A DNA stretch of 64,000 nucleotides, from positions 202,814 through 266,813 of the forward strand of contig OZ253947.1 of NCBI GenBank assembly GCA_965267345.1. Direction: 5' to 3'. A program made the translations under genes and the position numbers. The notes below the pieces were generated by a model. That model saw only the letters and a list, made by a program, of their open reading frames with translations, had not been told where the DNA came from and made no database searches. This DNA is from Minisyncoccota bacterium (GTDB lineage Bacteria; Patescibacteriota; Minisyncoccia; Phycocordibacterales; UBA2100). Below are positions 22,708-58,895 of this stretch, piece by piece. Position 1 is the stretch's first letter; each line of letters begins with the position of its first letter.

Positions 22708-23205
22708 ATGCTCAAGGCACACTACACCGTAAAAGATTTTCTGCCACTTATCGTTATTTTTGCCGGTATTTGTGCGATCAGTGCCGTGCTCTATCTTGTA
22801 AATGACATGGACATTCTGGTTGCCATGCGTGCCTTTATGGCCGGTTTCTTTTTGGTATTTGGTGCACTCAAAGTACTGCGCCTCAATGCATTTGCCGAGG
22901 CGTATCGCATGTATGATTTACTGGCGAAACGTAGTGTCGTGTATGCATACCTCTATCCGTTTATCGAGTTGGGGCTCGGGCTTCTCTATGCTTTTGGTGC
23001 GGTGCTACTGCTTACCAATAGTGTAACACTCGTCGTGATGCTCTTTAGTGCACTTGGCGTGTATCTCCAGTTACGCAAAGGCGAGACCATTATGTGTGCG
23101 TGTCTCGGTACGGTCTTTAAAGTGCCTATGACTTGGGTAACGCTCTTTGAAGATTTGCTCATGGCAGCTATGGCACTGGCGATGGTCGTCTGGTCTGCAC
23201 TGTAA
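22708..23205 (+). CDS. MauE/DoxX-family membrane protein
   Basis: Start MLKAHYTVKDFLPLIVIFAGI. 4-5 TM helices. Conserved CACLG near the C-terminus. Confidence 0.55.
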   Translation: MLKAHYTVKDFLPLIVIFAGICAISAVLYLVNDMDILVAMRAFMAGFFLVFGALKVLRLNAFAEAYRMYDLLAKRSVVYAYLYPFIELGLGLLYAFGAVLLLTNSVTLVVMLFSALGVYLQLRKGETIMCACLGTVFKVPMTWVTLFEDLLMAAMALAMVVWSAL

Positions 23206-41629: not shown

Positions 41630-41730
41630 TGCGCACTAGCATACCGTGATCGCGGCGCTGAGGCCACTGTGCGTTTTTACTGTTGCGCGATATCAGATAT
41701 GAGATAGTATAGACGCTACGTTTACTCTGC

Positions 41731-43245
41731 ATGGCAGCTGATGCATACAAAAAAATAGGACTCCTCATTCGAGAGCTGCGACGACAACGCGGACTGACGC
41801 AACGCGCATTTGCCCAAGCGCTGAACACGTCGCAGTCCGCTGTTGCGCGTATGGAAAAGGGTGAGCAAAACCTTTCAACGGCACAACTGCTCAAAATTAG
41901 CGACGTGCTCCATCACAGCATTCTCGGTATTAAAGAGGGTGTTGATTTTCAAATTGAAGGGGGCTCGAAGCTTCGCGGCAGTGCGGTGACAAACACATCA
42001 AAGAACGGTGCACTGGCACTGATGTGCGCCGCACTGCTCAACCGCGGTACCACGACGATCCACGGTATTCCACGCATTGAAGAGATTTACCGCATGATCG
42101 AGGTCTTTAAGAGTATCGGTGTCGGGCTTGAATCACTCGACCGCACGACCTTGCGCATTACACCGCCAAAGAGCTTTCGAGTGTCAGGTATCAACAAGCA
42201 GTCGGCACAAAAGATGCGCTCGGTGCTGATGCTCATCGGCGCACTGGTGCACCAGAAAACGTCGTTTGCGCTGCCGCATGCCGGTGGGTGCAACATGGGT
42301 GAGCGTACGATTGCGGCGCATCGGCACGCGCTTGAGCAGTTTGGTATCAAAATCAAAACAGAAGACGAACAGTACACCATCTCGCACCGCCGACTACGCA
42401 CGGCTGAAATTATCATGTACGAGGCAAGTGACACCGCGGCAATTAACGCACTGATGGCTGCGGCACTGATTCCCGGTACTACAACGATTAAGTATGCACC
42501 ACCCAACTATCAGGTGCAGGACGTCTGTTTTTTGCTCGAGCAGTTTGGCGTGCAGATTGAGGGTATCGGCACGACCACACTCACCGTGCACGGTGTTGAG
42601 GAGATCAATAGGGACGTCGAGCACTACAACAGTGAAGATCCGATTGAATCGATGATGTTCATCAGTGCCGCCGCCGTTACGGGCTCAAAGCTCACCATTA
42701 AGCGCAGCCCGATTGATTTTCTCGAAATCGAGCTGCTCAAACTCTCGTATATGGGGCTCAAGTATGAGAATAGCGATGTATACTTTGCAAAAAACGGGCG
42801 GACGCGACTCGTGGACATTACCGTGTTCCCCTCTGAGTTGAAAGCTTCACCCGTTAAGATTCACCCGCTGCCATACCCCGGACTCAACATCGACAACTTG
42901 CCGTTCTTTGTGCCGATTGCCACACAGGCAAAGGGAACGACACTGATTCACGACTGGGCGTGGGAAGGGCGCGCATTGTACTTTACCGAACTCAATCGAC
43001 TTGGTGCGGACGTGCGTATTGCCGACCCGCATCGCGTATTCGTAACTGGGCCGACTGATTTGCGCGCTGCACAGATGGTGTGTCCACCCGCACTGCGGCC
43101 GGCGATGGTGGTACTCATCGGCATGCTCGCCGCCGAAGGCACATCGGTGCTCCGCAATGTGTACTCAATTGAGCGTGGCTATGAACGTATTGCCGAGCGA
43201 CTCTCAGAAATCGGTGCACGTATTGAAATCATCAGCGATTTTTAG
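41731..43245 (+). CDS. murA: UDP-N-acetylglucosamine 1-carboxyvinyltransferase fused to N-terminal XRE-type HTH domain
   Basis: Residues 1-70 are an HTH (LTQRAFAQALNTSQSAVARMEKGEQNLS). The remainder is MurA with the catalytic Cys in LPHAGGCNMG and EPSP-synthase fold repeats. Total 504 aa. Confidence 0.85.
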   Translation: MAADAYKKIGLLIRELRRQRGLTQRAFAQALNTSQSAVARMEKGEQNLSTAQLLKISDVLHHSILGIKEGVDFQIEGGSKLRGSAVTNTSKNGALALMCAALLNRGTTTIHGIPRIEEIYRMIEVFKSIGVGLESLDRTTLRITPPKSFRVSGINKQSAQKMRSVLMLIGALVHQKTSFALPHAGGCNMGERTIAAHRHALEQFGIKIKTEDEQYTISHRRLRTAEIIMYEASDTAAINALMAAALIPGTTTIKYAPPNYQVQDVCFLLEQFGVQIEGIGTTTLTVHGVEEINRDVEHYNSEDPIESMMFISAAAVTGSKLTIKRSPIDFLEIELLKLSYMGLKYENSDVYFAKNGRTRLVDITVFPSELKASPVKIHPLPYPGLNIDNLPFFVPIATQAKGTTLIHDWAWEGRALYFTELNRLGADVRIADPHRVFVTGPTDLRAAQMVCPPALRPAMVVLIGMLAAEGTSVLRNVYSIERGYERIAERLSEIGARIEIISDF

Positions 43246-43311: not shown

Positions 43312-44067
43312 CTACAAATCGAGACCGAGAGTAATGCGAAACACGTGCTCGCCATCGCGCACAAGAATGGCTGTTGGGTCATCAGGGGTGAGTGTGAAGA
43401 TCGGCATACCACCCTTGTACAGTGGCTGGAAGTTTTGTGTGTCGCCCACATGCGTGTCGAGGGCAAAAATGCCATTACTGACGGCAACGATGACGGTATC
43501 GTCGCGTCGTGGGTACCACGCGACTCCGCGCACAGGTGTTACGGCATTTAAGACGCGTCGCGTGTCATCGCCGTCACGCACGAACACGGCCGAACCCTGC
43601 AGCCAAAGTGCGGCGCCGGTGTCGGAGTGTATACGCGGACTCTGTGCTGTAGGCGGTGTGGCTGTTGCGAAGAGCTCCTGTGCGCGCACAAAGAGCGGTT
43701 CGTCAGTGCTGACAACAGTGCCGATAGGATCTTTAGCTATCTGCAGCGGTGCGAGCTGCTGCTCAGCACCCAGTGTTGCCTGGAACGTGCTGATCCACGG
43801 CCATGCAGCATCGTGGGCAACGAGAATATCGTGTGCACCAGCATGGAGCCCGCGAATACGGACACTCGTTGTGTCGGCAGGAACGGACACTCGTTTTTCA
43901 TTATCGATGTAAATATCGCTGCCGGCGCGGGCATCTACAATAGTGAGTGTGGCCCCTTTGGCGATCGACATACCTGAAAAAACGTATCCCGCATAGTTCA
44001 GGGCACCAACAGCCAGCGCGATCACCAGAGCAATCGCGGCGGCACCAAGTATGCGCATGCGTGTCAT
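43312..44067 (-). CDS. Membrane-anchored secreted hypothetical protein
   Basis: Start MTRMRILGAAAIALVIALAVGAL (signal anchor), then a ~220-aa beta-rich domain. Confidence 0.55.
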   Translation of the reverse strand: MTRMRILGAAAIALVIALAVGALNYAGYVFSGMSIAKGATLTIVDARAGSDIYIDNEKRVSVPADTTSVRIRGLHAGAHDILVAHDAAWPWISTFQATLGAEQQLAPLQIAKDPIGTVVSTDEPLFVRAQELFATATPPTAQSPRIHSDTGAALWLQGSAVFVRDGDDTRRVLNAVTPVRGVAWYPRRDDTVIVAVSNGIFALDTHVGDTQNFQPLYKGGMPIFTLTPDDPTAILVRDGEHVFRITLGLDL

Positions 44068-44163
44068 CGCGCGAATTAAAGCAAGCACGACAGGCAATTG
44101 CAATGGCTGCGGGCATATGGGGGATAGTGTACACAGACGGATCGATTTTGGTATACTGCAGTT

Positions 44164-44275
44164 GAGCAAGATGGGTCTGCAAGGGGTATCCCTGCCTCCC
44201 CAAAGTCAGCACCCCACCTCTTGCATATCTGTCTTGCTCACCCCCGACCGCCAACACTGGCGGTCGTATTTTTTT
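44164..44275 (+). ncRNA. Candidate small RNA (~112 nt) defined by orphan extended -10 promoter and intrinsic terminator
   Basis: TTTTGGTATACTG (-10 at 44152-44157). No ATG-initiated ORF that stays clear of the terminator. Ends with CGACCGCCA-ACAC-TGGCGGTCG plus T9 at 44245-44275. Internal pairing GAGCAAGA / TCTTGCTC. Confidence 0.3.
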
Positions 44276-44345: not shown

Positions 44346-45362
44346 ATGGCATTTTCACTCACCCCGAAACTTGGTATTGATCTGGGCACCACGTATACAC
44401 TGGTTTTCGTACCGCATAAAGGGGTCGTACTGCGCGAACCTTCAGTCGTCGCTGTCTCCGAACAGGAAAACAAAATTTTAGCGGTGGGCGATGAGGCCAA
44501 AACAATGATTGGACGTACCCCCGACGACATTGTGGCGTACCGCCCGATGAAAGACGGGGTGATTGCTGACTACCGCGTGACCGAAGCCATGCTGCGCTAC
44601 TACATGCGTAAAGCACTACCGTGGTGGAATATTTTTCGACCCGACGTGATGATTTCAGTGCCGGCCGGCGTTACCTCAGCAGAGCGCCGCGCGGTTATTG
44701 AAGCTGCCGTGAAGGCCGGTGCGAAAAGCGCACACGTGGTAAAGGAGCCCATTTTGGCGGCTATCGGCGCCGGTATTCCGATTCATGAGGCACAGGGGCA
44801 CATGATTGTTGACATTGGTGGTGGCACCACGGACGTGGCGGTGATTTCGCTCGGCGGTATTGTGGCATCGACATCAGTGAAGTGTGCGGGCAACCGCATC
44901 GACGAAGCCATCACGGCGTACATCAAAAAGACATTCAATCTCGCCATTGGTGATAAAACTGCGGAGGATATTAAGATCACCATTGGCTCAGCCATCCCGC
45001 TTGAAGAGGAGCTGACGATGGTGGTGAAAGGGCGCGACTACCTCACGGGGTTGCCGCGCTCAATTGACCTGACGACAAATGAAGTGGTGAAAGCCGTTGG
45101 TCGCGAGTTGCGGGAAATTATTAAGGCTATTCGCGATGTGCTCCAAGACACACCGCCTGAGCTTTCGGCCGACATTATCGACAACGGCATCACCATGTCG
45201 GGCGGTTCGTCGCAACTGCGCAATTTGCCGGAATTAGTGTATCGCCGTACGGGTGTGAAGGCGCACTTGGCTGACGACGCGCTCTTTAGTGTCGCTAAGG
45301 GTACGGGCATTGCGTTGCAGCACCTCGACATCTACAAAAAAGCCATCATTTCAAAGCGCTAG
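44346..45362 (+). CDS. mreB: Rod shape-determining protein MreB (actin homologue), copy 1
   Basis: GIDLGTTYTLVFV, IVDIGGGTTDVAV and SGGSSQLRNLPEL. Preceded by TGGTATACT at 44317-44325. Confidence 0.9.
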   Translation: MAFSLTPKLGIDLGTTYTLVFVPHKGVVLREPSVVAVSEQENKILAVGDEAKTMIGRTPDDIVAYRPMKDGVIADYRVTEAMLRYYMRKALPWWNIFRPDVMISVPAGVTSAERRAVIEAAVKAGAKSAHVVKEPILAAIGAGIPIHEAQGHMIVDIGGGTTDVAVISLGGIVASTSVKCAGNRIDEAITAYIKKTFNLAIGDKTAEDIKITIGSAIPLEEELTMVVKGRDYLTGLPRSIDLTTNEVVKAVGRELREIIKAIRDVLQDTPPELSADIIDNGITMSGGSSQLRNLPELVYRRTGVKAHLADDALFSVAKGTGIALQHLDIYKKAIISKR

Positions 45363-49143: not shown

Positions 49144-50235
49144 GTGAGACGTATGCGCGGAATACTCACGTACCTACAACGACTGTGGACACGCTTGACG
49201 AGCGTGTTTTCCGAAGATATCGGTATTGACCTCGGGACGGCGAACACCCTTGTGTACGTTCGCGGAAAAGGCATTGTCATCAATGAGCCGTCGATCGTCG
49301 CCATGAATCAAAAAACAGGGCAGGTGGTTGCTGTTGGCGCCGACGCTAAAAGTATGCTCGGTCGCACACCAACGCACATCACGGCCGTACAGCCGCTCAT
49401 CGACGGTGTTATTTCCGACTTTGAGGTGACTGAAGAGATGCTCGGCTACCTCATCCGTAAAGCGCAGGACGGGCGCACCCGACTACTTGGCCCGCGCGTG
49501 GTTGTCGGTGTGCCGTCGGGCATTACCTCGGTTGAAGTACGCGCCGTGCAGGACGCGGCACGTAATGCCGGTGCCCGTGAAGTATTCATTGTTGAAGAGC
49601 CGATGGCGGCGGCGATCGGGATTCGCCTGCCTGTGCATGAGCCGTCTGGTTCGATGGTTATCGACATCGGTGGCGGAACGACCGACATCGGTATCGTCTC
49701 ACTTGGTGGCTTGGTGAATGCAAAGAACGTGCGCATTGCGGGCGACAAACTTAATGACGATATCGTTAACTATATTCGCAGTGAATTTAAAATTCTTATC
49801 GGGCGACGTTCGGCAGAAGATTTGAAAATCGCGGCTGCTGCGGTGGTGGAAGGCGACACGCCACTTGAGGCAACAGTGCGCGGGCGCGATCTGGTGACGG
49901 GCTTGCCACGTGAGGTGATTATTACCGATGCTGATATTCGCGAAGCCATCGCCACCTCAATTGACCAGCTCGTTGATGCCGTCAAAGAAGTGCTCGAAAC
50001 GGCGCCACCGGAAGTGGTCTCCGACGTCATGCGTCGGGGTATCTACCTTGCCGGCGGCGGTGCACTGATTCGTGGGCTTGGGGATTTATTGGGGGAAGCG
50101 CTCGGCGTGCCCGTGTATACTGCGGATGAGCCGCTGACCGCGGTGGTACGCGGTACTGGTTTTATTCTTGAGGATGTCGAGGCGTATCGCGAAACACTGA
50201 TAACCCAAAGCCATGAACTTTCACCGACCGAATAG
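49144..50235 (+). CDS. mreB: MreB paralogue, copy 2
   Basis: GIDLGTANTLVYV, VIDIGGGTTDIGIVSLG and AGGGALIRGLGDLL. Confidence 0.9.
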   Translation: MRRMRGILTYLQRLWTRLTSVFSEDIGIDLGTANTLVYVRGKGIVINEPSIVAMNQKTGQVVAVGADAKSMLGRTPTHITAVQPLIDGVISDFEVTEEMLGYLIRKAQDGRTRLLGPRVVVGVPSGITSVEVRAVQDAARNAGAREVFIVEEPMAAAIGIRLPVHEPSGSMVIDIGGGTTDIGIVSLGGLVNAKNVRIAGDKLNDDIVNYIRSEFKILIGRRSAEDLKIAAAAVVEGDTPLEATVRGRDLVTGLPREVIITDADIREAIATSIDQLVDAVKEVLETAPPEVVSDVMRRGIYLAGGGALIRGLGDLLGEALGVPVYTADEPLTAVVRGTGFILEDVEAYRETLITQSHELSPTE

Positions 50236-51010
50236 AAACCCGACACGCAGTGCCGTGCGCTGGCTACTTGGCATTGCCGTATTTGGTGCGCTGATGTTCG
50301 GCGTGAATGCGCTTCTCGACGGCCGACTGAGCTCACTGGTGCGGCTGCCCGCTGCGCCACTACAGGGCCTTGATGCGTCACTTACCGCTGCCGTGGGCAA
50401 CGCGCGCGCGGTGCTATCGCGCAATGATGTCGTGATACGCGAGCGTGATGTGCTCCGTGAGCGCGTGCGCGAGCTTGAAATATATGCCCTCAATAACCAA
50501 GTGCTCAAAGCGGAGAACGAAGCATTGCGACGGTTGCTCGGCGACACACCGGAGGACGGTACGGGCATTGCGGTGCGGGTGCTGACGCGTGGCGGTATTG
50601 CACCGTACGGCGTGCTTACTATTGCACAACCTGAATCAACGACACTAAGCGTCGGCGCACGCGTCTTTGGTGCACATGGCGTGGGCATTGGTGTAGTCAC
50701 CGACACATTCCCGACGTACGCGCAGGTGGAGCTGTTCTCACAACCGCAACGCAGCACAGACGTACTTATTCAGTCAGGCGATACGACGACACCGACTACC
50801 GTCACCGGTACCGGCAGCGGTAATTTTGTTGCGCGCGTTCCACGCGACGTTACCGTGCAGGTGGGTGACGCGGTGGTGCTCGCACAAGACAGCCGCATCG
50901 TGATTGGCATGGTGGGTGACGTAACCGTCACGCCGGCTGATGCGTTTAAAACAGTGCGCATTCGCGTACCACTTAATCTCGCGACGCTGCGATTTGTCAG
51001 TGTCGAGTAG
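50213..51010 (+). CDS. mreC: Rod shape-determining protein MreC
   Basis: N-terminal TM, a coiled coil (RERVRELEIYALNNQVLKAENEALRRLL), then beta domains. Sits after mreB. Confidence 0.8.
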   Translation: MNFHRPNRNPTRSAVRWLLGIAVFGALMFGVNALLDGRLSSLVRLPAAPLQGLDASLTAAVGNARAVLSRNDVVIRERDVLRERVRELEIYALNNQVLKAENEALRRLLGDTPEDGTGIAVRVLTRGGIAPYGVLTIAQPESTTLSVGARVFGAHGVGIGVVTDTFPTYAQVELFSQPQRSTDVLIQSGDTTTPTTVTGTGSGNFVARVPRDVTVQVGDAVVLAQDSRIVIGMVGDVTVTPADAFKTVRIRVPLNLATLRFVSVE

Positions 51011-51317: not shown

Positions 51318-53105
51318 ATGTCACTCTTCCGTCGGAAGCTTTTTTCAAGCAAAACGCGTCGCGCGGCGCCAATTGATCCTGATGAGGTGCTCCTTGATGC
51401 GTTTAACCTTCCCGATTTCAATACCCATCAACTTGAGGGACGCGTTGAGCGATCCATTCGCAGCTCAGTGCCACTGGCAGTTGGCGGCGCGATACTCGTC
51501 GTGTTCGGCATCTTTCTCTGGCAGTCATGGGACCTGCAGGTCACGCGCGGTGAGGCGATGGCGGTGCTCTCGGAACAAAACCAACTCGACCACGAAATTG
51601 TATTCGCACGACGTGGTGTCATCTACGACCGTTTTGGGCGCGAGCTTGCGTGGAATACTGCGCCACACACTGCCAGTACCACGGACATGCTCGGTGATAC
51701 GTTTTCTCTGCGCTCCTACAGCGATCAACGAGGAGTTGCTCACATTCTTGGCTTTGTCGACTACCCTGCGCATGACCAGCAGGGGAATTGGTGGCGCACT
51801 GAATACGAAGGACGTGCGGGCGTTGAGAGTAGTTTAGATACGCGTATTGCCGGTACCAACGGGGTGCGCATTATCGAAGTTGACGCACTTGGGCGCGTAC
51901 AGTCGGCCAACACACTCCGCGCGCCAGTTGACGGTGAGAATGTAACGCTCACGATCGATGCTGTGGTACAGGAGGCACTCTTCACCGCAATTCGCGATGG
52001 CGCGCAGCGTTCGGGCTTTACGGGTGGCGCAGGCGTCATTATGGATGCACGCACGGGTGAGGTAGTCGCGCTGACGAGCTATCCTGAGTATGACGTACAG
52101 GTGATGACCGATGGTGTCGATACCGATGCGATTGCCGCATACGTGCAGGATGAGCGCGATCCGTTTTTGAATCGTGCAGTACTCGGCGAGTACACACCCG
52201 GATCGATTGTGAAGCCCTACATCGCTGCCGCCGCCCTTGCTGAAGGGGTGATCACACCCGAAAAGCAGATTTTATCGACGGGCGAGATTCGTATACCCAA
52301 TCCCTACTATCCCGATCAATATTCTACGTTTCGTGATTGGAAAGCACATGGGTGGGTGGATGTGCGCCGCGCAGTCGCCGTGTCATCGAACGTGTATTTC
52401 TACGCGGTTGGTGGTGGTTACGAAGACCAGCAAGGTCTGGGCATCGATCTGCTCGCGTCCTACGCGCACGCATTTGGGCTTGGTGAGCCAACAGGTATTG
52501 ATCTTGCCAGCGAGGCATCAGGTGTTGTGCCGACGCCTGAGTGGAAAAGCCAAGTATTCGGCGAAGATGATCCGTGGCGCCTCGGTAACACGTACCACAC
52601 GTCAATTGGTCAGTTTGGCTTTCTCGTAACGCCACTGCAGGCAGTACGCTACATGGGCGCATTGGCAAATGGCGGTACGCTGCTCACACCGCACGTGCAA
52701 AAAGACACCATACCAACAACACAGAGCATTGGTATTGATGATGCGACGCTGCGCATTGTTCGCGACGGTATGCGCCGCGCTGTGCAGGGTGAGACGGCAG
52801 CAGCAGTGAATGTTGCGGGCATTGATATTGCGGCGAAAACAGGTACAGCGCAGCTCGGCAGAAACAACGAACTGATGAACTCATGGGTTGTCGGATTCTG
52901 GCCGGCCGAGCGACCACAATTTGCATTTGCCGTTGTGCTTGAGCGTGCACCGGCAGAGACATTGGTGGGTGCGGCACCGGCGATGCGCAGCTTTTTCGAG
53001 TGGCTCGTACGCGAGCAGCCGAGCTATGCAGCAGGTGCCTATCCGGTGCGTGAGGATGCGGTAGCTGCGCAGTGGGTAGATCTGTCCACACCCTTTGCTT
53101 TTTGA
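51318..53105 (+). CDS. mrdA: Penicillin-binding protein 2 (class B transpeptidase)
   Basis: SxxK (GSIVKP), SxN (SSN) and KTG (AKTGTAQ). Confidence 0.9.
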   Translation: MSLFRRKLFSSKTRRAAPIDPDEVLLDAFNLPDFNTHQLEGRVERSIRSSVPLAVGGAILVVFGIFLWQSWDLQVTRGEAMAVLSEQNQLDHEIVFARRGVIYDRFGRELAWNTAPHTASTTDMLGDTFSLRSYSDQRGVAHILGFVDYPAHDQQGNWWRTEYEGRAGVESSLDTRIAGTNGVRIIEVDALGRVQSANTLRAPVDGENVTLTIDAVVQEALFTAIRDGAQRSGFTGGAGVIMDARTGEVVALTSYPEYDVQVMTDGVDTDAIAAYVQDERDPFLNRAVLGEYTPGSIVKPYIAAAALAEGVITPEKQILSTGEIRIPNPYYPDQYSTFRDWKAHGWVDVRRAVAVSSNVYFYAVGGGYEDQQGLGIDLLASYAHAFGLGEPTGIDLASEASGVVPTPEWKSQVFGEDDPWRLGNTYHTSIGQFGFLVTPLQAVRYMGALANGGTLLTPHVQKDTIPTTQSIGIDDATLRIVRDGMRRAVQGETAAAVNVAGIDIAAKTGTAQLGRNNELMNSWVVGFWPAERPQFAFAVVLERAPAETLVGAAPAMRSFFEWLVREQPSYAAGAYPVREDAVAAQWVDLSTPFAF

Positions 53106-53671: not shown

Positions 53672-55240
53672 ATGTTCTGGGCAGACAAGATAGCGGAGGA
53701 AGCACAGGCCGCACTCGCTCCAAAAATTGCAGACGGGGAAACCTTAATTGTTCGTGATGAAAAGACGGCAAGCGGCCGTGTGCATGTCGGATCGATGCGC
53801 GGTGTTGCGATTCATGGCACTGTCGCCGCCGTACTTGCAGAGCAGGGTGTGCCCGTGAAGTTCCTCTATGAAATAAACGACTTTGACCCGATGGACGGAT
53901 TGCCGACGTATCTCGATGCAGACGAGTACCAACAGCATATGGGTAAGCCACTGCATGCGGTGCCTGCACCTGACGGTGCGGCGGAAAACTTTGCTGAGTA
54001 TTACGCACAGGAATTCATTGCGGTAATCACTGAAGCAGGGTTTACACCCGAGTACTACCGCGCGCGTGAGCTCTATACGTCGGGCCGTATGGATGCAGCG
54101 ATTCGCACTGCACTTGAGCGCGCCGACGACATACGTGCGATTTACAAAAAAACGAGCGGTGCTGAGAAGGCGGATGACTGGCTGCCACTGTCAGTTGTAT
54201 GTGAGCAGTGCGGAAAGATCGGCACGACAAAAGCACTCTCATTTGACGGCACAGTGGTGACGTACGAGTGCCGTACTGATTTAGTGACGTGGGCGGACGG
54301 GTGCGGCTACAAAGGGTCGCGCAGTCCGTTTGGCGGGAACGCAAAATTGCCGTGGAAGGTTGAGTGGGCGGCAAAATTTGCCGTACTCGGCGTGGATATT
54401 GAGGGTGGCGGTAAAGATCACTCGACGCGCGGTGGTGCGCGTGATGTTGCCAACCACATTGCCCGCGACATCTTTGACTACACGCCGCCGTTTGATATTC
54501 CGTATGAGTTTTTCCTCGTTGGCGGTAAAAAGATGTCGAGCTCGAAAGGCGCCGGCTCATCAGCACGCGAAATTGCCGACTCACTTCCGGAAAAAATATT
54601 CCGTCTCGCACTCCTCGGGACACGGCCGATGCGTGCTATTAATTTTGAGCCCGACGGTGCAACCATTCCGACACTTTTTGACAAATACGACACGCTAGCG
54701 GCGAAAGCACATGCAGGGGTGACTGACGACGAGACGCGGCTCTTCGAACTCATCCATCACGGCACCATCCCGCCGTATGTCGCGCCGATGCGTTTTTCTG
54801 AAGTGGCATTTCTGGTGCAGATGCCGCACCTCGATGTCTTCGAGGAGATGCGCAAGCAGAAAGGAGGCGATCTTACTGAAGGCGAAAAGAACGATTTGAC
54901 CGAACGGGTGCAGTACGCACAACGATGGATTGCCGAACACGCACCTGAGCGATACGTGTTTGAGTTGCAGAAAGCGGTACCCGACTACGATTTTACCGAT
55001 CAGCAACGCCACGCATTTGCGCAAATTCATGCGTATGTAGCGGCGCATGAACATGTGACGGGGGAAGAGCTGCATCACGCACTCCACGATATTAAAAACG
55101 ATGTCGGTATCGAGCCGAAAGAGCTCTTTTCCGGACTGTACCGCGCATTTTTGAATCGCGATTCAGGGCCACAGGCAGGATGGTTCTTAAGTATGCTCCC
55201 ACGCGACATGTTACTCGAGCGACTGCAGCAGGTGAGTTAG
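53672..55240 (+). CDS. lysK: Lysine--tRNA ligase, class I (archaeal/spirochaete type)
   Basis: HVGSMRG (HIGH-like) and KMSSSKG (KMSKS). 522 aa. Confidence 0.9.
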   Translation: MFWADKIAEEAQAALAPKIADGETLIVRDEKTASGRVHVGSMRGVAIHGTVAAVLAEQGVPVKFLYEINDFDPMDGLPTYLDADEYQQHMGKPLHAVPAPDGAAENFAEYYAQEFIAVITEAGFTPEYYRARELYTSGRMDAAIRTALERADDIRAIYKKTSGAEKADDWLPLSVVCEQCGKIGTTKALSFDGTVVTYECRTDLVTWADGCGYKGSRSPFGGNAKLPWKVEWAAKFAVLGVDIEGGGKDHSTRGGARDVANHIARDIFDYTPPFDIPYEFFLVGGKKMSSSKGAGSSAREIADSLPEKIFRLALLGTRPMRAINFEPDGATIPTLFDKYDTLAAKAHAGVTDDETRLFELIHHGTIPPYVAPMRFSEVAFLVQMPHLDVFEEMRKQKGGDLTEGEKNDLTERVQYAQRWIAEHAPERYVFELQKAVPDYDFTDQQRHAFAQIHAYVAAHEHVTGEELHHALHDIKNDVGIEPKELFSGLYRAFLNRDSGPQAGWFLSMLPRDMLLERLQQVS

Positions 55241-57173: not shown

Positions 57174-58895
57174 ATGGCAGCGTCGCGCACACGGGAACTC
57201 TTTCAGCAACGGGTGCGCCTGATTCTTGCCGTATTTGGCATTATTGCCGCGCTGGTGGTTGCGCGATTGTACCTCCTGCAAGTGGTGCATGGCAGCGAGT
57301 ACCGTATTCAAGGCACCGACCAGTATGTATCGACTTCGGGCGGCTTTTATAACCGTGGAAGCATTTTCTTTGCCGATAAGGATGGGCGCGAGGTGAGTGC
57401 CGCAACCATGAAAACGGGCTATATTCTTGCGATCCAGCCAAGCACCATTACCGACCCTGAGGCACTCTACACGGCACTGTCAGCGCACGTTGCGCTTGAT
57501 GAGGACGCATTTCTGCAGCGGGCCACAAAGGCGGGCGACCCGTATGAGGAGGTGGCACATCGCTTAACTAGTGAACAGGCAACGGCACTGCGTGCAGCTG
57601 ATCTCGAGGGGGTCATTCTCGTGCCCGAGCGATGGCGCTACTACCCAGGAGGCGCACTTGCCGCGCACACCATCGGCTTCGTTGCCTATGAGGGGGATGA
57701 TCGCGTTGGCCGGTACGGGCTCGAGCGCTACTACGACGACGTACTCCAGCGTGGTGAGAGCAATTTGTACGTTAATTTTTTTGCCGAACTCTTCACGAAT
57801 TTACGCGATGTGGTGTTTGTGCCGATCGATAAGCGTGAGGGGCATATCGTGACAACGATTGAACCGGCAGTGCAGCTGCACCTTGAACAAGTGCTCACGC
57901 AAACACGTGAGCGCTGGGATTCGCAATTCACGGCCGGTATTGTCATTGATCCACGTACGGGTGCGATTCGCGCCATTGCCGTATCCCCCGCTTTTGACTT
58001 GAATGCGTTTGGCCAGGCTGATGCACAGCAGTATGCGAATCCAATTGTTGAGCGTGTGTATGAGATGGGCTCGATTATGAAGCCACTGACGATGGCTGCC
58101 GGTATTGACGACGGAGCCGTAACACCTCAGACAACGTACAATGATCAGGGGCGCCGTACGTTTGACGGCGAAATCATTTCAAACTTTGATGGCCATGGTC
58201 GCGGTGCGGTGCCCATGCAGGAAGTGCTCTCGCAATCACTCAACACGGGTGTTGCCTTTGTCGTTGAGCAGATGGGCACTGATGATTTCCGTCGCTATAT
58301 GTACCGCTACGGACTCAACGAAGAAACGGGTGTTGACTTGCCCGGCGAGGTGCGACCGCTCGCTGGTAACCTCACCAGCCCGCGAAAGATTGAGTATGTA
58401 ACGGCAAGTTTCGGGCAGGGTATTGCGGTGTCACCGATTAATATGGTGCGCGCACTTGCAGCACTCCCCGACGGATATGTGGAGCAACCGCATATCGTGC
58501 AAAGAATAAAATCGCAAAACGGGATTTCGCAAGACTATGAGTACGATGATTTACGCACACAGGTGCTCGACCCTGAGACCGCAGAGGAAATCACACGCAT
58601 GCTGGTTACTGTGTACGATGAAGCACTTTTGGATGGTGCGGTAAAAATGGAACACTACAGCATCGCCGCAAAGACGGGTACGGCACAGATGGCATCGCCT
58701 GACGGCGGTTACTACGATGATCGCTACCTGCACACGTTTTTCGGGTACTTTCCCGCATTTGATCCACAGTACCTTGTCTTTCTTATGAATGTTGAGCCGA
58801 AAGAGGTTGAGTATGCGTCGCAAACACTCACTACACCGTTTGTCGACGTGACACAGTTCCTCATTAATTATTACGATATTCCACCTGACCGGTAG
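57174..58895 (+). CDS. ftsI: Peptidoglycan D,D-transpeptidase FtsI (PBP3-like class B PBP)
   Basis: GSIMKP (SxxK), SLNTG (SxN) and AKTGTAQ (KTG). Confidence 0.9.
   Translation: MAASRTRELFQQRVRLILAVFGIIAALVVARLYLLQVVHGSEYRIQGTDQYVSTSGGFYNRGSIFFADKDGREVSAATMKTGYILAIQPSTITDPEALYTALSAHVALDEDAFLQRATKAGDPYEEVAHRLTSEQATALRAADLEGVILVPERWRYYPGGALAAHTIGFVAYEGDDRVGRYGLERYYDDVLQRGESNLYVNFFAELFTNLRDVVFVPIDKREGHIVTTIEPAVQLHLEQVLTQTRERWDSQFTAGIVIDPRTGAIRAIAVSPAFDLNAFGQADAQQYANPIVERVYEMGSIMKPLTMAAGIDDGAVTPQTTYNDQGRRTFDGEIISNFDGHGRGAVPMQEVLSQSLNTGVAFVVEQMGTDDFRRYMYRYGLNEETGVDLPGEVRPLAGNLTSPRKIEYVTASFGQGIAVSPINMVRALAALPDGYVEQPHIVQRIKSQNGISQDYEYDDLRTQVLDPETAEEITRMLVTVYDEALLDGAVKMEHYSIAAKTGTAQMASPDGGYYDDRYLHTFFGYFPAFDPQYLVFLMNVEPKEVEYASQTLTTPFVDVTQFLINYYDIPPDR

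Follow-up and report, generated by a model that had tools for sequence, protein, structure and literature searches.

An XRE-type helix-turn-helix domain fused to MurA, and a conserved palindrome in its promoter, suggest an enzyme-autorepressor of early peptidoglycan synthesis in the Parcubacteria group

The DNA studied here (the window) is a stretch of 64,000 nucleotides, or 64 kb, of contig OZ253947.1 from a Minisyncoccota bacterium. It contains a gene in which an XRE-family (Cro/C1-type) helix-turn-helix (HTH) domain is fused to the N terminus of MurA, and our comparisons indicate that the product is probably bifunctional, acting both as enzyme and as autorepressor (a "trigger enzyme") of early peptidoglycan synthesis. 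The case rests on an 18-bp palindrome that occupies the promoter of the fusion gene across related species and whose presence goes with the recognition helix of the HTH. An earlier reading of the window sequence, referred to below as the original prediction, had proposed the fusion and had taken it to imply autoregulation or moonlighting; the autoregulation claim now has strong comparative support in this palindrome, with DNA binding itself predicted from sequence. The gene, its parts and its putative control elements are as follows.

41731–43245 including the stop codon, + strand: HTH-MurA fusion gene, 504 aa; a single open reading frame (ORF) with an ATG start and both Pfam domains.
41755–41910, + strand: XRE/Cro-C1 HTH domain, residues 9–60; assigned from Pfam HTH_3, AlphaFold2 (AF2) secondary structure and conservation.
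41827–41856, + strand: recognition helix TSQSAVARME, residues 33–42, followed by invariant G44, Q46 and N47; assigned from conservation, the pattern also being found in Gp49-linked antitoxins.
41911–41946, + strand: inter-domain linker, residues 61–72; low predicted local distance difference test score (pLDDT) between two confident domains.
41947–43242, + strand: MurA (UDP-GlcNAc 1-carboxyvinyltransferase) domain, residues 73–504; assigned from Pfam, NCBIfam, structure matches and invariant residues.
42289–42291, + strand: codon of Cys187, the catalytic Cys, which pairs with that of the MurA structure 5ujs in alignment.
41689–41706, no strand: putative operator GATATCAGATATGAGATA, a degenerate copy of the family palindrome that ends 25 nt before the ATG.
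41683–41688, + strand: putative −35 element TTGCGC, weak, adjoining the left end of the operator; TTGCG or TTGCA in relatives.
41705–41710, + strand: putative −10 element TAGTAT, overlapping the right end of the operator with a 16-nt spacer; from a laxer scan and homology.

The fusion itself is borne out, as one ORF of 504 codons encodes both an HTH_3 and an EPSP_synthase domain, and the HTH peptide originally quoted is present, with TSQSAVARME as residues 33–42. The original prediction suggested looking for the same fusion in related genomes. A species scan (one genome per species) matched 508 relatives, and in the best 80 loci (L001–L080), which make up the species sample used throughout, the fusion is uninterrupted in every genome: 80/80 loci have one continuous ORF, with the start codon at the N terminus of the HTH and a stop codon a short way before it. 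None of the 80 species shows a frameshift or a split gene, and the possibility that a frameshift parts the two domains is not upheld. The same is true of an internal start at the MurA domain. In-frame ATG, GTG or TTG codons at residues 62–80 occur in only 24/80 genes, no single position having one in more than 9/80, and in the window the first in-frame start after the HTH is a GTG at about residue 86, within the MurA fold. Both domains are likewise present in 120/120 of the best database homologues (the best 120 of 8000; 62–100% identity, about 501–512 aa), so that the pairing is far more frequent than chance would give. One of these homologues, P0001, encoded on a contig of 644,490 bp, is 100% identical to the window protein. 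Such proteins are currently annotated automatically as MurA or as "helix-turn-helix domain-containing protein". In the AlphaFold model of the fusion (pLDDT 88.7, predicted template modeling score 0.81, built on 53 homologues), the domains are joined by a linker of ~10 flexible residues (61–70 at low confidence) with a block mean pLDDT of 57 and values below 50 at residues 66–68; at the junction, G70, D72 and F73 show conservation across the 80 species. In database protein P0125 (529 aa) decay has struck the HTH, the opposite of what is seen in the pseudo-enzyme fusions described below: the HTH region is degenerate, with no TSQS helix, and the catalytic loop of MurA, PSGCDLGDRT, is preserved.

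The original prediction knew of no such architecture in model bacteria, and this stands. Database sources that name a lineage point to Kaiser-, Zambryski-, Yanofsky-, Magasanik- and Pacebacteria, Minisyncoccia and Paceibacterota, to which the species loci add Nomura-, Uhr- and Jorgensenbacteria, lineages that lie within NCBI's Parcubacteria group. By the titles that name a lineage, the HTH-MurA fusion is a feature of the Parcubacteria group; many species-locus titles read "uncultured Candidatus Saccharibacteria", which we took as unverified, generic labels of metagenome-assembled genomes.

Profile searches place the N-terminal domain in the XRE family. Pfam HTH_3 (PF01381) matches residues 13–60 with E = 1.2e-12 and 48 bits against a cut-off of 23, and PF13560 also matches, with 41.4 bits against a cut-off of 27. 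AF2 predicts four HTH helices (residues 2–19, 24–31, 35–42 and 50–60; pLDDT 80–90) packed in a compact helical bundle. T33, S36, E42, G44, Q46 and N47 never vary among the 80 species, conservation of S34, Q35 and R40 is 96% or higher, and the mean top-residue frequency is 0.72 in the HTH versus 0.76 in the MurA domain. Ratios of nonsynonymous to synonymous substitution (dN/dS) are ~0.065 and ~0.050, respectively, values that are approximate since synonymous sites are near saturation; on these sequence measures purifying selection is as strong on the HTH as on the enzyme. Taken alone, the N-domain has its best solved sequence matches in small dimeric XRE repressors, namely C.AhdI (1y7y), C.BclI (2b5a), HipB (8ezt) and the Xre antitoxin 4pu3 (E = 3e-5 to 2e-3), all of them known to bind palindromic operators as dimers. 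Unlike the fusion N-domain, these are stand-alone proteins with other operators, and identity to them is low.

The C-terminal part is a complete MurA with the catalytic Cys in AGGCNMG, as originally claimed: C187 lies in HAGGCNMGERT and all catalytic residues are kept. Pfam EPSP_synthase (PF00275) covers residues 76–491 (E = 1.4e-52). The protein passes the NCBIfam MurA subfamily model NF006873 (325.5 bits; cut-off 297) and falls short of the stricter equivalog TIGR01072 (315.9 bits; cut-off 392.7), and is thus a divergent MurA. Its best solved relatives are MurA structures, aligned across residues 73–501, and the AlphaFold MurA body superimposes on MurA crystal structures with target-normalized TM-scores of 0.89–0.91 (Foldseek), showing the two-domain enolpyruvyl-transferase fold. 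K91, N92, R163, C187, R192, D303, D388 and R414 are invariant among the 53 homologues. By alignment with solved MurA structures and the numbering of Escherichia coli MurA, these are equivalent to K22, N23, R91, C115, R120, D305, D369 and R397; in 5ujs the counterparts of C187 and R192 are likewise Cys and Arg. The canonical enzyme (E. coli, E. cloacae; PDB 1uae, 1naw, 3su9) shares the fold and the catalytic and substrate residues with the window protein, to which it is 27–28% identical in structural alignments, and differs in having no DNA-binding domain. The window protein is predicted to be a catalytically competent MurA.

When the sequences preceding the fusion genes were compared with one another, an 18-bp palindrome, T-ATATCA-yATr-TGATAT-A, stood out. 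If no more than 2 mismatches are allowed over its 12 core bases, within 200 nt upstream, it is present in 72 of the 76 loci with enough upstream DNA, at a median distance of 12 nt from the ATG. Outside the upstream regions, roughly 690 kb of locus sequence yielded 62 matches, so that about 1.4 loci would be expected to score by chance. All 18 positions are near-invariant, including the 4-nt center, while the flanks are random, and the centers of the half-sites ATATCA and TGATAT are 10 bp apart, or one helical turn. A −35/−10 pair straddles the palindrome in 63/72 sites (for example TTGCAT, 16 nt, and TATACT, TATATT or TATAAT). In 54 of these 63 promoter-like pairs the −10 element starts at operator core position 13 or 15, and in about 43 it ends 6–9 nt before the ATG. 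Because of this last spacing, and because an SD-like (Shine-Dalgarno-like) tetramer is found in only 2/80 fusion genes, transcripts of the fusion gene are predicted to lack a leader in most species. The palindrome thus fills the −35/−10 spacer and overlaps the −10 element, the geometry expected of a repressor site.

Occurrence of the operator goes with the sequence of the recognition helix. Only two loci, L007 and L009, have ample upstream DNA and no operator, and in both the recognition helix has diverged (TSTSTVARME and TSVSVVNKME). Their subclade is represented in the database by P0029, P0033, P0036, P0040, P0042, P0044, P0046 and P0047; its members are 68–74% identical to the window protein and have lost Q35 from the helix. 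An inverted repeat, TGTTAAG-N11-CTTAACA, lies upstream of the gene in L009 and may be a re-targeted operator. Three MurAs of the same subfamily (L205–L207; 53–55% identical in the MurA domain) have no HTH, nor any remnant of one, and no upstream operator. By eye, tRNA-like sequences were spotted directly upstream of two of these HTH-less murA genes (L206:4750–5000 and L207:300–547), in the place where fusion genes have promoter and operator. Co-variation was also seen within the operator-bearing set: all six loci with the symmetric variant TATCTCA..TGAGATA carry the helix variant TSQSS[IV]PRME, which is also found at the half-variant locus L078 and at 6/9 loci in which only the right operator half is changed.

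When metagenome contigs were scanned without bias for the exact 18-mer, 120 loci were recovered. The genes flanking the site cluster into 30 HTH-MurA fusions, 5 MurBs (divergent from the fusion) and 12 modules of a Gp49 toxin and an XRE antitoxin; most of the others, 80 in number, are singletons. The HTH of the Gp49-linked antitoxins is 41% identical to that of the window protein, with the helix T[KT]QSN[IV]AR[IM]E.G.QN, giving the common pattern T.QS..AR.E.G.QN, and the promoter layout of the toxin-antitoxin modules (TTGACA, palindrome, TATAAT) matches that of the fusion. Modules of Gp49 (PF05973) and XRE with TTGACA, TATATCATATATGATATA and TATAAT were recorded at L106, L107, L133, L136, L149, L152, L167, L169, L170, L189 and L192. 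The helix motif is encoded less than 1 kb from the 18-mer in 34/120 loci, and never more than 2 kb from the site in about 428 kb. A phage origin of the operator or of the toxin-antitoxin module was considered and set aside: 28 viral contigs carry the 18-mer, the helix motif is near it in 0/28, and these are taken as chance matches in AT-rich DNA. Since two unrelated gene contexts pair the same type of HTH with the same palindrome, the HTH is predicted to recognize the palindrome, and we regard this pairing as the strongest indirect evidence.

A further line of evidence comes from fusions that have lost the catalytic motif. An exhaustive profile search of 1.84 billion representatives gave 993 clusters at E ≤ 1e-30. 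Eleven of them (P0129, P0130, P0138, P0141, P0143, P0234, P0240 and P0271–P0274) lack the catalytic GGCxxGxR (C115 and R120) and have the helix TSQSA[VI][AN]R[IM]E.G.QN; they belong among fusions 30–39% identical to the window protein, and in the seven that were aligned the R91 equivalent is lost too. Four loci were looked up.

Pseudo-enzyme fusion gene: L201:3498–5003.
Pseudo-enzyme fusion gene: L202:5211–6740.
Pseudo-enzyme fusion gene: L203:8001–9467.
Pseudo-enzyme fusion gene: L204:713–2260.

The operator is at the gene's own start in 3/4 of these loci. In L201 a perfect operator abuts the ATG, and a stand-alone MurA (GGCVLGVR) and two Mur ligases lie alongside; in L202 the operator is in the divergent region common to the pseudo-MurA fusion and a stand-alone murA-murB operon; and in L203 a perfect operator lies 19 nt before the ATG, with murB nearby. 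The stand-alone MurAs at these loci belong to another subfamily, 26–28% identical to the window MurA domain. Recent local duplication was rejected as the origin of the pseudo-enzymes, which are 35–39% identical to the window fusion and only 24–26% to the co-resident MurA. Because the fused copy keeps HTH and operator and loses the chemistry where another MurA is present, the DNA-binding function appears to be selected in its own right, and the MurA fold is probably usable as a regulatory, ligand-binding domain. Such catalytically dead paralogues would represent an enzyme fold turning into the sensor domain of a transcription factor.

Genes of the same pathway adjoin the fusion. murB is its divergent upstream neighbor in 26 loci, which places the operator region between the two genes. 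In 11 loci a gene for a Mur ligase is found no more than two genes away from the fusion, in 6 of them directly downstream. In seven Zambryskibacteria-like loci a second, slightly variant operator (TTATCTCATATATGGTATAA) is found between murC (− strand) and a conserved small ORF.

Second operator copies near murC: L020:1576, L021:2758, L033:1924, L039:2640, L064:2598, L036:481 and L051:2596.

The small ORF beside murC is 83–95 aa in three loci and longer or different in the others; the L021 copy has no Pfam match. It is preceded by a strong Shine-Dalgarno sequence and a TTGCAT...TATAAA promoter in most of the seven loci.

Taken together, these data suggest the following mechanism. Two HTHs, from a dimer or from two molecules, would bind the two half-sites of the 18-bp palindrome on one face of the DNA. 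Occupancy of the operator would block RNA polymerase, such that MurA represses its own gene, and murB would be co-repressed from the shared divergent region, giving a regulon made up of the first steps of UDP-MurNAc synthesis. In the weakest step, the MurA domain would double as a sensor whose ligand or conformational state tunes DNA binding, as in BirA. A candidate effector is UDP-MurNAc, which is the product of the murA-murB steps and has been seen bound to MurA, in PDB entries 3su9, 3swd, 3swe, 3swg and 8d84. A wider version of this scheme, to which we give somewhat less than an even chance, would have the MurA fold, in open or closed form, bound to UDP-GlcNAc or PEP (phosphoenolpyruvate), or "dormant" with UDP-MurNAc, set the transcription of murA, murB and murC through the HTH as a one-protein feedback loop. 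The fused copy would then be a dedicated regulator where a second MurA exists, and HTH and operator would have been recruited from a toxin-antitoxin system.

Several points weigh against the autorepressor reading, the first group of which concerns the window's own copy of the operator. Within the 64 kb a single site, ATATCAGATATGAGAT at 41690–41705, 25 nt short of the ATG, matches with 2 mismatches or fewer, and this lone match is not above chance, since 84/100 shuffles give at least one. Shuffled sequences reach a position weight matrix (PWM) score of up to 11.7, compared with 11.1 for the window copy, which departs from the 18-bp consensus in 3 places, one of them the first T, conserved in 70/71 of the other sites. 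A strict sigma-70 scan calls no promoter at the window operator, the promoter there being weak (TTGCGC, 16 nt, TAGTAT). The window copy nonetheless aligns column for column with the operators of its six closest relatives (L001–L006), and operator plus adjoining TTGCG form the only conserved block of that intergenic region in the window and these relatives. No further operator copies were found in the 64-kb window; PWM matches at 22902 and 25930 were rejected, as they lie within or beside unrelated genes and inside shuffle noise. The second group concerns the mechanism. Co-variation of helix and operator is limited to one clade and could stem from one event in evolution. Most descriptions of MurA are of a monomer, a state that by itself does not bring two HTHs together. 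The AF2 model gives no sign of a fixed HTH-MurA interface able to pass on ligand state. Binding to DNA, the oligomeric state and the direction of control are predictions from sequence comparison, and the search for a second murA covered the ORFs examined within the 64-kb window.

It is also possible that the palindrome is the target of another XRE protein, such as a Gp49-linked antitoxin, and that the MurA HTH serves for protein contact or nucleoid tethering. A binder acting in trans is conceivable, as there are stand-alone antitoxins that share both helix and operator, but the operator is gone where the fused helix has diverged (L007, L009) or the HTH is missing (L205–L207), and no Gp49-type toxin-antitoxin module was found in the 64-kb window or beside the fusion in the 80 loci. 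Moreover, the identical helix implies that the fused HTH would bind the site anyway, and we consider this explanation unlikely. Nor is the window HTH itself a good candidate for a type II antitoxin. No Gp49 toxin gene lies beside the window fusion, and the fusion aligns only to antitoxin residues 36–91; it lacks the 35-residue N-terminal part and thus has no toxin-binding extension. The Gp49 (PF05973, HigB/RelE-like) XRE antitoxins share helix pattern, 18-bp palindrome and promoter layout with the fusion and differ from it in being about 100 aa long, in following the toxin gene and in having the 35-residue N-terminal extension. The MurA N-domain is probably descended from them or sister to them.

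Equally improbable, in our judgment, is a window protein that is mainly a transcription factor, with a MurA-like domain that only senses ligand and a separate MurA that catalyzes. The rare relatives at L201 and L202, where a pseudo-MurA fusion sits beside a stand-alone MurA, provide a precedent. The window protein itself, however, retains every catalytic residue that is invariant in the 53 homologues and passes the NF006873 cut-off, and no second EPSP-synthase-fold gene was found among the ORFs examined in the 64 kb, a window annotated in part only.

An HTH kept as a structural or vestigial appendage that does not bind DNA, next to a palindrome that is an unrelated promoter feature, appears less probable still. 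XRE-like folds are sometimes reused as interaction modules, and operator binding is here predicted from sequence comparison. Against an appendage stand the purifying selection on the HTH, which equals that on the enzyme, and the identity of the invariant residues, which are the usual DNA contacts; in addition, the palindrome occurs about once per locus, at the fusion gene only, and the pseudo-enzymes keep the HTH while losing catalysis.

The palindrome could in principle act as an RNA hairpin in a 5′ leader that controls translation or stability. The consensus folds to a 7-bp hairpin (−4.3 kcal/mol, z −2.4), and two compensatory variants are known, TATCTCA..TGAGATA and TATAGCA..TGCTATA. With the −10 element overlapping the right arm and the ATG 6–9 nt after the −10, however, most of the palindrome would be untranscribed. 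One-sided variants that break the stem are found in 15 loci (window excluded) versus 7 with compensatory changes, the window copy barely folds (−1.1 kcal/mol, z −0.35), and it is the sequence itself, 4-nt center included, that is invariant and not just the pairing. On the grounds of promoter geometry, one-sided variants and weak folding we reject this possibility as highly improbable. Least credible of all is an annotation artifact in which two genes or an internal start yield no fused protein, for which only the general frequency of mis-called starts can be cited and which is ruled out by 80/80 continuous ORFs, upstream stop codons, the lack of a conserved internal start codon, the conserved junction G70, D72 and F73, and a promoter and operator that precede the start of the HTH.

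The favored reading, of HTH-MurA as enzyme and autorepressor, has parallels in other pathways. Group II BirA, the biotin protein ligase that represses the bio operon, similarly combines an N-terminal HTH-type domain and a pathway enzyme in one polypeptide, with an operator at pathway-gene promoters. Group I biotin protein ligases have no DNA-binding domain (PMC4016012), and to that extent are paralleled by the HTH-less MurAs. In contrast to the XRE domain of the fusion, BirA has a winged HTH, another fold and another pathway, and whereas a biotinyl-AMP corepressor and ligand-induced dimerization have been demonstrated for BirA, both are hypothetical for HTH-MurA. PutA, NadR and the archaeal RbkR are described as active metabolic enzymes that bind DNA and control genes of their own pathways (PMC5397151), and RbkR was likewise found through comparative genomics of fusions and conserved operators. 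Unlike HTH-MurA, these three have no link to peptidoglycan, the EPSP-synthase/MurA fold, an XRE HTH or the Parcubacteria group. Enzyme-repressor fusions are therefore already known as a kind; the operator is new here, and we found no description in the literature of the HTH-MurA fusion, its operator or its pseudo-enzyme forms.

The remaining surroundings of the fusion gene in the window are as follows. On one side lie priA (− strand) and def, and on the other a 285-aa ORF (− strand), mreB, holB, frr, rseP, proS, a second mreB, mreC and a gene for PBP2 (penicillin-binding protein 2); no operator was found at any of them. The 285-aa ORF (43312–44169, − strand) is immediately downstream of HTH-murA and convergent with it, has no Pfam match and, judged from its sequence by eye, has a membrane-anchored look; it is kept as the downstream neighbor in the closest relatives (7 loci including the window). 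The window also holds what looks like a full elongasome set, with two MreBs (44346–45362 and 49144–50235), MreC (50213–51010) and two PBP2-type transpeptidases (51318–53105 and 57174–58895), which is notable for a contig of only about 644 kb. At 53672–55240 it encodes a lysyl-tRNA synthetase of the class I type (Pfam tRNA-synt_1f), a minority form in bacteria.

MurA carries out the committed step of peptidoglycan synthesis and is the target of fosfomycin. Its known control is post-translational, through feedback by UDP-MurNAc and, in Firmicutes, regulated proteolysis. If the reading favored here is true, a DNA-binding MurA that acts as repressor at both its own and the murB promoter would add a new form of control over the supply of cell-wall precursors, and would be the first enzyme-repressor of the peptidoglycan pathway. 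The operator common to the toxin-antitoxin modules points to how such fusions assemble and, should a Gp49 module and an HTH-MurA occur in one genome, cross-talk between toxin-antitoxin system and cell-wall synthesis would be possible. For the largely uncultured Parcubacteria (candidate phyla radiation, CPR), HTH-MurA and its palindrome would be among the first regulator-operator pairs with a precise DNA site.

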